Positions 35,482-58,751 of a stretch of DNA of 64,000 nt are shown here, in pieces. The notes under the pieces are model-generated. The model ran no database searches. It saw only the letters and a list, made by a program, of their open reading frames with translations, and was not told where the DNA came from. Each line of letters starts with the position of its first letter. Position 1 is the first letter of the stretch. The stretch comes from Acidobacteriota bacterium (GTDB lineage: Bacteria > Acidobacteriota > UBA6911 > RPQK01 > JAJDTT01): NCBI GenBank assembly GCA_965217775.1, contig CBDCJH010000002.1, forward strand, positions 4,000,001 through 4,064,000, in the 5' to 3' direction. Both the position numbers and the translations under genes were made by a program.

Positions 35482-36828
35482 TCAACTCGCACCATTGCCG
35501 GCAAACTTGGCGAGCAATGGGATGGATTCGACCCCCATCTCGAAATAGTGGGGATCTTTCTCTATTCCGATCGACTCGTATCCCAACGCCTCGGCTGCCG
35601 CCAGCGTAGATCCTGCACCCGCAAAGGGATCGACGACCACACCTTCCCCCAAAGGAAGAACGCCCCTCACAAGCTGCCGCAAGAACTGTTGCGGCTTCAG
35701 GCTGGGGTGCGGAGCCAGTGCCCTTTCATTTTTTCTGGTCGGCGAGGATCTAATGACATCGCCAAACGGTTTCGCGTCCGAGGGCCGCCGGAAGCCCCCC
35801 GTTTTCCACTTCCGAAGATTGTCCTGTATCCTCCCTTCGACTGGTTTGCGGAACAGAATCCACGGTTCCCACATCGATCTAGGCATGACGCTGACGTCCT
35901 TGAACTCCTGGTGGGCTGCTTTTGGCCGATCCCCTCCCCGCATGGTCATCACCAGCCGGATAATTTCACCCCGTCGTTCCAACCCGGCATCGGACAGCGC
36001 ATTGGAGACGATGAATGAGAGCAGCGGATTGGACGCAACGATCACATTCGCCCCAGGTACCAACTTGGGGGCCAGGAGGCGCGCCCAGACAAAGAAAAAC
36101 GTGCGAATCTGCTCTCGCTGTGAATCGGTCAGCGTAGTGAAGAGAGGCAGCGGCGATCTTTTGTGTCCATCGAAGGAAGGAGGAATTCGCCAGACTCCTC
36201 CCTTGCCCCGTCTCAGTTTCCGTTGCTCCTTCGGAGAGTATTCCTGCAGACCGTAGGGCGGGTCCGTAACTACGGCGTGGATGGTCGCATCGGTCCGGCG
36301 ATCCAGCCAATCAAAACAGTCGCCATGGACCAGTGTCGCCATCCCATATCGAAATGGCTCATTCCAAAGTTCTGTACTGTTCAGGCGACGCAGCCAACTG
36401 CCAACGTAACCTTTGCGAAGCCGGTAGAAACCCCGTTTCTCCCTACAGAACAGATCTGGTGTATTCAGTCTCAACAGTCCGTGGTGAAAGTCCCGCGAGC
36501 ACCGAGACCGTTCCTGCGCCCGCCGGACAAGGCGCGATTCGGGTGCATACCGGGAGTATGTGCCCGAATCGCAACGCCGTCCGCCGGGATGCAGGGACGG
36601 TCGAATGCCGTGATGACTTTTGCCACGGGCTGTCAAGTAAGATCGCACCGAGGATTCAGGCGTTGAGCCCATGACTCGAGTCACTCTTTGCTCGATCTGC
36701 TGCACTGACAGGGCCTCGGATGTCAGATTCAGAATCTGGAGGATGGCGTCACGGACCCGCCCGGGAGCAGGTCTGGCCTTCTTGCTGCTGATACCGATGA
36801 AACATCCGATAAGTCGTCCAGACGTCAT
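35482..36828 (-). CDS. Site-specific DNA methyltransferase (N4-C/N6-A, beta class) with N-terminal HTH-like region and a 54-aa in-frame insert
   Basis: VVTDPPY precedes HPSLKP and VDPFAGAGST; SSVRSYL|RLNTP split by the element A copy; start uncertain. Confidence 0.88.
   Translation of the reverse strand: MTSGRLIGCFIGISSKKARPAPGRVRDAILQILNLTSEALSVQQIEQRVTRVMGSTPESSVRSYLTARGKSHHGIRPSLHPGGRRCDSGTYSRYAPESRLVRRAQERSRCSRDFHHGLLRLNTPDLFCREKRGFYRLRKGYVGSWLRRLNSTELWNEPFRYGMATLVHGDCFDWLDRRTDATIHAVVTDPPYGLQEYSPKEQRKLRRGKGGVWRIPPSFDGHKRSPLPLFTTLTDSQREQIRTFFFVWARLLAPKLVPGANVIVASNPLLSFIVSNALSDAGLERRGEIIRLVMTMRGGDRPKAAHQEFKDVSVMPRSMWEPWILFRKPVEGRIQDNLRKWKTGGFRRPSDAKPFGDVIRSSPTRKNERALAPHPSLKPQQFLRQLVRGVLPLGEGVVVDPFAGAGSTLAAAEALGYESIGIEKDPHYFEMGVESIPLLAKFAGNGAS
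36475..36632. mobile_element. Palindromic MITE-like element, family A, copy 2 (158 bp), in frame within the methyltransferase gene
   Basis: Same TIRs as copy 1; TCAA duplicated at 36471-36474 and 36633-36636. Confidence 0.92.
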
Positions 36829-56561: not shown

Positions 56562-57293
56562 TCACTTTTTTCTGGGCTTCGACGGTCGCATCTCGACGCG
56601 GCTGACCAGGCACCGCGGATGTTGGGTCAGAATGCTGACGACCACCTGCGCCACGTCCTCCGGAGCCATCTTCCAGGCGTCTCCGCTCCCGCCCTGCGAC
56701 GATCGCGACTTGGTGTTGACGCTGCCCGGCATGATGTAGGCGACCCGGATGTCGTCGTGCCGGACTTCCTCCATCAGGGCTTCGCTCAGTCCGGTCAAGC
56801 CGAACTTGGAGGCGTTGTAGGCCGAGCCTCCGGCGAAGGCGTTCTTGCCGGCGAGGCTGCTGATGTTGATGATGAATCCGCCCCCGGTCTTCTTCATCTC
56901 CGGGACCGCGAAGTGACAGCCGTAGAAAACGCCGTCCAGATTGGTGGCGATGGTGGTCCGCCACTCCTCCACCGACATCTCCTCCACGCTCTTGAAGGCG
57001 CGCAGGGCGGCCGCATTGTTGATCAGAATGTCGATCCGCCCGAGCCGGGCGATACAGGAACGGATGAGCGCCCGGACCTGCTCCGGGTCCCTGACGTCGC
57101 AGGTTTGACCCACCACCGCCCCCGCGCCGCTGCCGCGGAGGGAATCGACCGCCGCTTCGATGTCTCCTCCGTTCCGGGCGCAGATCATCACCCCCGCACC
57201 CGCGCGAACCAGTGCCCGGGCCACGGCGAACCCGATCCCTCGCGAACCGCCCGTGACCACAGCCCGTTTGCCTGAAAGTGTCATAACCCGCAT
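56562..57293 (-). CDS. SDR family oxidoreductase
   Basis: TGGSRGIG, NNAA, YNASK, MPGSV. Confidence 0.92.
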   Translation of the reverse strand: MRVMTLSGKRAVVTGGSRGIGFAVARALVRAGAGVMICARNGGDIEAAVDSLRGSGAGAVVGQTCDVRDPEQVRALIRSCIARLGRIDILINNAAALRAFKSVEEMSVEEWRTTIATNLDGVFYGCHFAVPEMKKTGGGFIINISSLAGKNAFAGGSAYNASKFGLTGLSEALMEEVRHDDIRVAYIMPGSVNTKSRSSQGGSGDAWKMAPEDVAQVVVSILTQHPRCLVSRVEMRPSKPRKK

Positions 57294-57383
57294 TCCTCAC
57301 CGGGAGGCCCGACGACCGCGAAGCCCTTCTTCCTTCGACGCGATCCCGGCACCGATGGCTCTTGGTTGTCCTTGCCGTTATTT

Positions 57384-57740
57384 CTACGACCCAGACCTCT
57401 GGTTCGGCCCGGCCACAGAGCAGGCTAATGCAACCATCAGTGCAGAGTCGAGATGCTTGATCTTGGCGCCCTTGAGGCTTCCGACGAACCGAGTCAATTG
57501 CGACTTCCTCAAACTGACAAGCTCGTCGCAGTGCACGCTGCTGTCGTGTCGAAGTCCCTCATTCGATCCGATATCGACCTGCGTTGCGAGCCCGTGGCGG
57601 GCTGAGTACACCGGCGCGCAGATGACCGTGGAAAAACGGGAATCGATCAACTCCTGCCGACTGACTACGACGAACACACGAAACCGCTTCGGGTCGCGAG
57701 CAGGAGGCTTGGCAACCCGATAGAGCTCACCGCGTCTCAC
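57384..57740 (-). CDS. mazF: PemK/MazF-family endoribonuclease toxin
   Basis: MRRGELY, R.FVVVSR, TVICAPV, EGL..DS..CDEL.SL; GTGA overlap with the upstream gene. Confidence 0.88.
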
Positions 57741-58408
57741 ATTTCCACCTGGTAACCCAAGACGTCGACCGCTTCCTCGTTCAGTTCATCAGCGTGCGCG
57801 TTGATGATGTTGAGGTCACGCTTGTCGTTCGCCTCGCGAGAACTCGCAGCTGATTCACCGGCTACTCTGATACGCGCGCGGCCTCCCGGGTGTGCGGCAC
57901 GCTCCGTATTGCGCCACATGAATCCGATGTCCAGAGCAATCCCAAGTTTTTGCGCTGCAGTCACGATTGCCAGACCAGCTCCATTGGCAGGCTGGCCCTG
58001 TACCGAAACATCTATCTCGGACAGGTAACGGTAACCTTCTTCTTGCTTCCTCCCTTGAACCATGTTGGCAGGACATAGCCGGTTGAGCTCATCGAAATTC
58101 CTGGCGCGCTCCTTGGCCAACTTGACGACCATTCGATCTCGCAAATGATTCCACTTTGGCCGTGCGACGACGATCCCGCCGATCATCGCGTCCAGAACTT
58201 TCGTATGCGTCAAGTCAGGAAGCCGTTGCGGATCAATCCGCCTTTCAGAATCCATCCGGGTGCCTTCTTTCGAGGCGCCGATGCCAGCCTGTTGATCCAG
58301 GGCGTCCAGAGCACGATTGATGACTGCATCGGGATTGACGTCCAGGAATGGCCGAGCATGACTTTTCAGTCGCTCGAGAGTCGCCTCGTCCACGGCTATA
58401 TCGACCAT
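57737..58408 (-). CDS. Putative chimeric antitoxin: RHH-like N-terminus + uncharacterised central domain + acidic MazE-like tail
   Basis: [31 protein letters not shown]; tail [24 protein letters not shown]; coupled to mazF; GGGAGG RBS. Confidence 0.65.
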
Positions 58409-58419
58409 ATCTTCCTCCC

Positions 58420-58441
58420 AAATTTAAAACGTTGTAAATTT
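58420..58441. promoter_or_regulatory. Palindromic operator candidate in the TA promoter
   Basis: AAATTTAAAACGTTGTAAATTT, 22-bp palindrome with one mismatched pair, in an AT-rich stretch just upstream of the RBS. Confidence 0.6.
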
Positions 58442-58751
58442 ATATGATTAATTTGCTCCCGCATGCAAGACGCTACCCATAAAGAGACAGCATTGCGCGC
58501 TCGAGGGTCTTTCCATTGCCTGGCTTCGCCGGGCCATGGCTGCGACAACGCCCTGGGGCCACTTTACCGGGGTCCGCCCGGTCTGCAACCGACTGGCGCG
58601 GGGGTGGTCCAAAAAACGCAGATTCGTATACGCTTCACCTGCCACGAACGTCAGGCCCGCGGCCGTGGTTGTGTGGAAAACATATGAGTCGGCGGCTGGT
58701 AACCGCCGCTCCCACCCCGCCCTCCGCGGACCATCGGCGAGGACAGCCATC

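Follow-up and report, generated by a model that had tools for sequence, protein, structure and literature searches.

A MazEF-type cassette with an apparently chimeric antitoxin of the SepA family in an Acidobacteriota genome

The mazF locus and its long antitoxin gene

The DNA described here is a stretch of 64,000 nucleotides from the genome of an Acidobacteriota bacterium (GCA_965217775.1, contig CBDCJH010000002.1, positions 4,000,001 to 4,064,000), hereafter called the window, whose own coordinates are used below. It contains an inserted cassette of ~1.37 kb (57285..58651), bordered by an SDR gene on one side and the adjacent gene on the other and consisting of a candidate operator, an antitoxin gene, and a toxin gene. 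The toxin gene (57384..57740, minus strand) has a GTG start and encodes a mazF/pemK-type endoribonuclease of 118 amino acids (aa), as identified from the list of open reading frames (ORFs) and from Pfam. The gene upstream of it (57737..58408, minus strand) encodes 223 aa and, based on its ORF, the family model NF047386, and homology of its C-terminus, is assigned as a chimeric antitoxin with a SepA-family body and a MazE-type tail. The GTG start of the toxin and the TGA stop of the antitoxin share the bases GTGA, a 4-base overlap, and both ORFs are intact. The original prediction for this locus, made from the DNA letters without database searches, had described mazF as coupled in this way to an unusually long antitoxin gene, and the ORFs are as it described them.

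The 118-aa ORF matches the Pfam family PemK_toxin (PF02452) at 2.2e-13 over profile positions 1-108 of 109, and its best solved relative in the Protein Data Bank (PDB) is MazF7 of Mycobacterium tuberculosis (1.5e-7). All 17 invariant columns in an alignment with 19 orthologues (20 sequences) are retained. An identical 4-base overlap is present in 14 intact canonical pairs (L010-L016, L018-L022, L024, and L025), the MazF proteins of which are 62-84% identical to the window MazF, and likewise in eight more distant canonical pairs. Three of the features that define type II MazEF/PemIK systems are found here, namely a MazF/PemK fold, a coupled upstream antitoxin gene, and C-terminal homology of its product to cognate antitoxins.

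Residues 1-181 of the 223-aa protein match the NCBIfam model NF047386, "T4SS effector SepA family" (T4SS, type IV secretion system), at 6.9e-50, with 169.3 bits against a cut-off of 110; the match spans positions 1-181 of the 182-position model and was confirmed on the genome DNA. Pfam gave no match to the 223-aa protein. Three segments can be distinguished: a module resembling ribbon-helix-helix (RHH) and SeqA_N domains at residues 1-40 (58289..58408, minus strand), presumed to be the dimerisation and DNA-binding part; a conserved alpha/beta core domain of the SepA family at residues 55-185 (57854..58246, minus strand); and, at residues 187-223 (57740..57850, minus strand), a segment derived from a canonical RHH antitoxin according to tblastn and DNA homology, which is predicted to comprise the post-RHH linker and the MazF-binding tail. 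AlphaFold2 models bear out the three-part build proposed in the original prediction, with helices at residues 8-17 and 26-40 in the N-terminal module (predicted local distance difference test, pLDDT, about 60), an alpha/beta domain at residues 55-185 (pLDDT above 90, and 94 when folded alone), and a low-confidence helix at residues 187-217.

A search of 200 related genomes with MazF gave matches in 35 at E ≤ 1e-10 (36 of 201 when the window's own genome is included), and 29 loci of this MazF subtype, all outside the window, were retained. When the 223-aa protein was compared with these loci by tblastn, the matches were confined to residues ~187-223 and reached E ≤ 0.003 in 18 of them (17 without L027, from the unpublished genome G016). 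The closest tail, at L010, is 80.6% identical over 36 aa and shares 25 of the 27 tail residues. Intact upstream genes at the 29 loci encode proteins of 71-81 aa that start MK(V/I)KTS, and the small antitoxin at L010 has a CopG-type RHH domain at residues 5-39 (RHH_1, 22.7 bits against a cut-off of 20.5), indicating that the swap is domain for domain. The join, at about residue 186/187, is the point at which RHH_1 ends in the canonical 76-aa antitoxin. Similarity to canonical mazE at the DNA level begins at this same point, and contigs from a metagenome run that encode other antitoxins part from the window sequence at 57826-57832. Since only residues 187-223 match canonical antitoxins, the RHH domain appears to have been lost exactly and a full SepA-family protein received in its place. 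On this homology, the antitoxin is clearly a natural chimera, in which the canonical RHH head has been exchanged for a complete SepA-family protein and the 37 C-terminal residues and mazF have been kept. The original prediction had described the tail as resembling those of small antitoxins before this MazF subtype, and had proposed that it was grafted onto an otherwise stand-alone protein; both proposals are borne out by the tblastn matches and by the completeness of the SepA-family body.

A related canonical antitoxin gene occurs in a congener (L094, G004:C1:5994500-5997500), where the ORF is listed at 82 aa with the usual MKLKTS start six residues in. Its tail is identical to the window tail at 23 of 27 residues, and the DNA match covers window positions 57670-57832, ending ~70 bases into mazF; the toxin of this locus may have been lost or may have diverged.

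Upstream of the antitoxin gene, a Shine-Dalgarno sequence read from the DNA, GGGAGGAAG (58411..58419, minus strand), lies 2 nt 5' of the ATG. Directly 5' of it, between a TATAAA box and the Shine-Dalgarno sequence, is a 22-bp near-perfect palindrome that represents a candidate operator (58420..58441; AAATTTACAACGTTTTAAATTT on the gene strand), with 11-nt arms complementary at 10 of 11 positions and no spacer. With up to three mismatches allowed, the palindrome count in the window is two (the same site on both strands), a value reached in none of 100 dinucleotide-preserving shuffles of the window. The palindromic operator candidate of the original prediction is thus present and non-random relative to shuffled sequence. 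Neither a consensus sigma-70 promoter on the gene strand nor an intrinsic terminator was found in a consensus scan.

Canonical mazE genes of this subtype have a conserved GGAGTATGATTGTGGT box immediately 5' of the ATG, which is missing upstream of the 223-aa gene. The upstream region there instead resembles those of SepA-family genes in its AT-rich repeats and strong Shine-Dalgarno sequence, and an AT-rich palindrome is similarly placed upstream of L039, the closest stand-alone homologue. The lack of the canonical mazE box and the SepA-gene-like upstream region together indicate that the 5' regulatory region came with the body. By homology, the tail and toxin derive from a mazEF, and the promoter region is of the SepA-gene type. 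In the canonical antitoxin genes themselves (L010-L026), a common GG(A/T)AGTAT..T.GT.GT box is located 16 nt before each start, ends at the ATG, and looks like a -10 box positioned for a leaderless or very short-leader transcript.

Insertion, maintenance, and recurrence of the fusion

In four genomes of the same genus (G006, G002, G007, and G003), the sequences flanking the cassette are separated by ~100-136 bp and enclose no toxin-antitoxin genes. The G+C content falls inside the 1.37-kb cassette, to 0.55-0.59 over 57400-58600 compared with 0.64-0.67 in the flanks, in agreement with the greater AT-richness noted in the original prediction. Comparison with the four congeners, in which it is missing at the same site, identifies the cassette as an insertion. 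In a further genome of the genus (G005), a gene resembling the body and a canonical mazEF (75% and 76% DNA identity, respectively) occupy two distant places. In genome G029, ten matches to the MazF subtype with 78-85% identity occur on several contigs (e.g., L010), seven of them near full length and the remaining three truncated or with a stop, which suggests that canonical mazEF in that genome rides on a repeated or mobile element.

Among 5.8 billion proteins, 225 relatives of the window protein were identified, most of them 180-200 aa long and ending where NF047386 ends. The extra C-terminus of the window protein is shared only by P0001, P0002, and P0003, which are known here as protein sequences alone and are 97%, 87%, and 84% identical to the window protein, all with 223 aa. 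Among these variants (84-97% identical), 2 of the 27 tail residues change compared with 5-7 of the 14 residues in the preceding linker; between the window protein and P0003, there are 2 of 27 tail changes and 7 of 14 linker changes. The joint is also covered by independent sequence data. In run X3, one contig spans 57528-58700 across it with zero differences, and in run X6, two contigs (57740-57915 and 57914-58700) show zero differences at the joint. These runs belong to different studies, and one of the runs may be the source sample, such that they count as at least one independent study. The contigs indicate that the fusion is not an assembly artefact, and the protein variants suggest that it has been maintained rather than being accidental. 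The original prediction had allowed for a recent accidental deletion-fusion and for a fusion unique to this assembly. The first is disfavoured, as three variants keep the 223-aa form with a tail more strongly conserved than the linker, and the second does not hold, as P0001-P0003 keep the fusion.

A tail from a small antitoxin has evidently been added to a SepA-family body more than once, judging from a second protein. In P0357 (213 aa), the SepA-family body is extended by a stretch of ~27 residues, which shares 72-79% identity with the C-terminal ends of small proteins of 64 aa (P0390-P0393; E-values of 6.8e-6 to 1.1e-4 against the whole collection). The N-termini of these small proteins match DUF2281 near its cut-off, and in Synechocystis, proteins of this type appear in a published table as the antitoxins that pair with PIN toxins (PMC4963859). 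The DUF2281-type tail of P0357 thus makes grafting onto SepA-family bodies recurrent. A similar acidic, tryptophan-bearing tail is seen in P0328; like P0357, this protein is known here as a protein sequence alone.

The SepA family, its neighbourhoods, and its fold

NF047386 is named after Brucella abortus SepA (BAB1_1492), and the effector role of the family rests on this one organism (PMC4602199, PMC12676571). In these accounts, Brucella SepA is a T4SS-dependent substrate that lacks any known domain and whose gene lies in a region gained by horizontal transfer, and both reviews give its mode of action as unknown. The window protein shares with the family a whole-model match above the cut-off and 50-67% identity to stand-alone members; typical members are 175-200 aa long and lack a tail, whereas the window protein carries one. 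A profile search of 1.84 billion representatives recovered 1,476 clusters at E ≤ 0.001, of which 908 reach E ≤ 1e-10; most have 175-200 aa. Named genome records place the family in Acidobacteriota, Bryobacterales, Binatia, Alphaproteobacteria, Dehalococcoidia, Arenicellales, and a Nostoc, with a patchy distribution; within the phylum, it was found in 2 of 401 sampled genomes (G000 and G005). Two further loci, L051 (199 aa) and L058 (184 aa), seemed to reach the tail by tblastn, and their ORFs proved to be ordinary members without a tail.

To describe the genomic setting of the family, we used 46 SepA-family loci, that is, 45 plus the second copy in the window's own genome (L002). At least one PADLOC match at E ≤ 1e-12 lies within 3 kb at 26 of the 46, and 34 of 194 neighbouring ORFs have such a match, with 5 of 15 in a separate scan of 17 proteins. 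In the rest of the window, 1 of 42 large ORFs has a PADLOC match, although this control is one 64-kb region of one genome and several of the loci are close kin. The sole control match is a type II DNA methyltransferase-like ORF (35485-36828, minus strand; MTase_II, 6.5e-108). No MazF was found near a SepA-family gene in the 46 loci. At about a dozen loci, the SepA-family gene is first in an operon-like pair or set, followed by QatA-QatB-QatC (with overlapping genes), PDC-M04A/B, HsdM with SoFic, PDC-M24B, a type II methyltransferase, a TIR-like or PLD-like protein, a protein of the PD-(D/E)XK type, an exonuclease resembling SbcB, or a ParE-like toxin. The effector role assigned to NF047386 is ill-suited to this defence-island context. 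Since SepA-family genes that stand alone are usually found at the head of, or beside, anti-phage defence genes, the body probably acts as a regulator in defence islands or binds nucleic acids. Full-text searches of the literature, covering main texts, found no description of the fusion or of a link between the family and defence.

Several members of the family have additional domains. DUF4357 is fused to the SepA-family proteins at L002, L040, and L045 (5.1e-17 in L002), and this domain is one of the accessory domains listed for McrB- and GmrSD-type restriction enzymes (PMC4619093, PMC11090510). In P0251, the body is fused to the C-terminal winged-helix domain of DpnI (DpnI_C, PF17726, 3.1e-14); P0375 has an ending similar by eye and no Pfam match. 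Two tandem SepA-family core domains behind a single N-terminal module are present in P0004 and P0242. The L002 gene (G000:C2:5428482-5429432) is also matched in its C-terminal part by PADLOC PDC-S14 (3.1e-28), and a PDC-S32-like ORF then follows. In metagenome-assembled genomes (MAGs) of Arenicellales, the SepA-family gene lies 30-230 bases downstream of a helicase on the same strand (L061, L063, L066, L068, and L069). This helicase, of ~1,120 aa with HKD and Snf2 domains, matches PADLOC C3a139 at about 1e-58 to 1e-61, and the pair is conserved in the lineage. At L075 (3695-4620), a core-only ORF with 41% identity over residues 64-184 has an N-terminal part that resembles non-coding read-through; the ORF shares one base with a ParE-like toxin gene (PF24732, 5.4e-6), and this locus may be another toxin pairing.

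Foldseek, a check proposed along with the original prediction, gave nothing against the PDB, the best E-values being 0.53 for the full model and 0.48 for the core alone. Designed repeat proteins that appeared in phmmer and hmmsearch runs against PDB sequences were taken as spurious because they sum low-scoring repeats. There are weak indications of kinship with SeqA. For the homologue P0070, language-model features retrieved SeqA clusters at 0.92 (207 of 256 features shared; 17 of 30 hits), and the first 35 residues of the window protein align to the N-terminus of Escherichia coli SeqA (hhalign E-value 0.022, probability 2%). The two proteins share a short N-terminal beta-alpha-alpha module, a flexible linker, and a C-terminal globular domain, but the predicted SepA-family core would have more strands than the part aligned to SeqA. 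None of 117 family members matches Pfam SeqA (PF03925) or SeqA_N (PF17206) at E ≤ 1, and hhalign of the family against SeqA profiles gave nothing for the core, these profiles being thin (E. coli SeqA and a few relatives, as the homologues among those listed were all at least 82% identical and a 300-genome class sample gave three SeqA matches). SeqA kinship of the SepA family is therefore a lead, not a result. The reader-like body of the original prediction fares in the same way. It is a fair lead, in line with the weak SeqA signals, the DpnI_C and DUF4357 fusions, and the defence neighbourhoods, but its SeqA side found no match in Pfam, nor for the core in hhalign. Weak Pfam SeqA matches (1.9e-6 and 9.2e-4) were also seen in two genomes of another class, C-terminal in longer proteins (L100:289-909 and L101:1453-2376, both minus strand) whose N-terminal parts resemble restriction-endonuclease-type domains by eye, suggesting SeqA-C-like readers fused to nucleases.

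Proposed function and relation to known systems

We consider it likely that the locus is a type II MazEF-type toxin-antitoxin cassette with a naturally chimeric antitoxin, working broadly as follows. By analogy with other MazE-MazF pairs, the tail (residues ~196-223) would wrap the MazF dimer and block its RNase site. The SepA-family body would dimerise through its N-terminal module and bind the 22-bp palindrome that separates the -10-like box from the ribosome-binding site, thereby repressing the operon. Once the antitoxin is lost, titrated away, or degraded, MazF would be freed, leading to RNA cleavage and growth arrest. The graft would place MazF under whatever controls the SepA-family protein.

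Several observations weigh against this interpretation. Neither MazF nor the 223-aa protein matches any model of PADLOC-DB v2.0.0 at E ≤ 1, and Pfam does not recognise an RHH domain in the window protein. In the monomer model, pLDDT is 38-54 in the tail and about 60 in the N-terminal module, the two parts that would bind toxin and operator. The fusion is also uncommon: none of the 200 related genomes searched yielded it, and in a scan of Joint Genome Institute (JGI) metagenomes with residues 157-223, all three loci recovered had a canonical antitoxin with MazF. The narrow control for the defence neighbourhoods belongs here as well. Two metatranscriptome runs each contain one perfect contig of 152-157 nt inside the body (window 57949-58134), which is a weak hint of expression and possibly DNA carry-over. 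Both runs are labelled sponge metagenome, which hints at habitat.

The original prediction went further and proposed a sensor-gated defence module, in which binding of a phage ligand or modified DNA could release the RNase. Spelled out as an abortive infection system, the SepA body would respond to a phage protein or to the modified, unmodified, or hemimethylated state of DNA, and this would alter the hold of the tail or the stability of the antitoxin, such that MazF is freed only on infection. This proposal extends the chimeric MazEF interpretation and does not exclude it. Control of MazF through the sensing of a DNA state or phage cue by the body is speculative. The frequency of defence neighbourhoods around SepA-family genes (26 of 46 loci) and the fusion of homologues to domains of the modification-dependent-restriction type (DUF4357 in L002, L040, and L045; DpnI_C in P0251) are consistent with it, but every SeqA signal falls short of the usual thresholds and the cassette stands alone between housekeeping genes, outside any defence island; we regard full sensor gating as unlikely. 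A wider and more doubtful version is that the SepA family (~1,500 clusters at 50% identity) may consist of widespread, as yet unrecognised SeqA-like DNA-state readers and regulators that head unrelated defence operons and have been repeatedly grafted with antitoxin tails. If true, a SepA body sensing an unmethylated or hemimethylated incoming genome would directly gate the release of an RNase or PIN toxin. The cassette could also be a selfish addiction module, in which the toxin and tail stabilise the SepA gene or a mobile cassette, with the function of the body unrelated and MazF without a defence role. Its compactness, its absence from four congeners, the patchiness of the family in the phylum, and the multiple copies of mazEF of this subtype in G029 agree with such a role, and the present evidence fits this account and the chimeric MazEF interpretation alike; it leaves unexplained, however, why at least two antitoxin tails were grafted onto the SepA family, and we judge it quite improbable.

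A recent accidental deletion-fusion of neighbouring genes, without selected function and now decaying, would agree with the restriction of the fusion to this lineage and three close proteins and with its absence from the 200 relatives and the JGI scan. Both frames are intact, however, the join falls on a domain boundary, the tail is more strongly conserved than the linker among the 84-97% identical variants, and P0357 represents a second independent graft. Moreover, as MazF is absent near the 46 SepA-family loci, no arrangement is seen from which a simple deletion between adjacent genes could have arisen, and we consider this account very unlikely. Least credible is a role of the 223-aa protein as an effector exported by type IV secretion, its pairing with MazF being incidental. 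The NCBIfam name and the T4SS dependence of Brucella SepA (PMC4602199, PMC12676571) are in its favour, but the family occurs mostly in environmental MAGs of Acidobacteriota, Alphaproteobacteria, Dehalococcoidia, Binatia, and Arenicellales beside defence genes, and translational coupling here ties the gene to a cytoplasmic toxin, whose antitoxin tail it bears, which makes this reading hardly tenable.

The chimera provides a natural experiment in antitoxin modularity, and the second graft marks the SepA-family body as a favoured scaffold. It would also recast a family that takes its name from one effector of a pathogen as defence-island-associated and probably nucleic-acid-binding. The toxicity of MazF and repression at the operator could offer a simple read-out for what the SepA family binds or senses, and if the body is a sensor, the cassette would be a compact example of a toxin-antitoxin pair wired to an infection signal.

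Compared with the canonical RHH-MazE/MazF pairs (L010, L011, L012, and L019), the cassette has a MazF 62-84% identical to theirs, the gene overlap, and homologous last 37 antitoxin residues. The canonical pairs have a small antitoxin of 75-79 aa with a CopG-type RHH head and the GGAGTATGATTGTGGT box, whereas the window has a 186-aa SepA-family body with the palindrome and Shine-Dalgarno sequence. Structures of M. tuberculosis MazEF (MazF7, 5wyg; MazE-MazF-mt9, 6a6x) have low sequence similarity to the window pair, and their antitoxins are small, with no extra globular domain.

BrxR/CapW-type WYL regulators precede many unrelated defence systems. The SepA-family genes resemble them as small regulator-like genes directly upstream of Qat, PDC-M04, type I restriction-modification, PDC-M24, TIR-like, and PLD-like genes, but differ in having no sequence or domain relationship to them and no helix-turn-helix (HTH) or WYL domain. 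The DNA-binding heads of small antitoxins include Phd/YefM and HTH types. Mix-and-match antitoxins swap small dedicated heads (RHH, AbrB), whereas the replacement in the window is a two-module 186-aa protein with a stand-alone life beside defence genes. Antitoxins with divergent DNA-binding folds have been described alongside MazF-family toxins (PMC3879964), and a composite mazE-doc system has been reported (PMC1626090). Since antitoxin head swapping is already known (PMC3879964), the window system varies a known theme. It is unusual in that the new head is a two-module protein of 186 aa that also exists independently beside defence systems, that the exchange is exact at the domain boundary with both parents present in a congener, and that the graft recurs.

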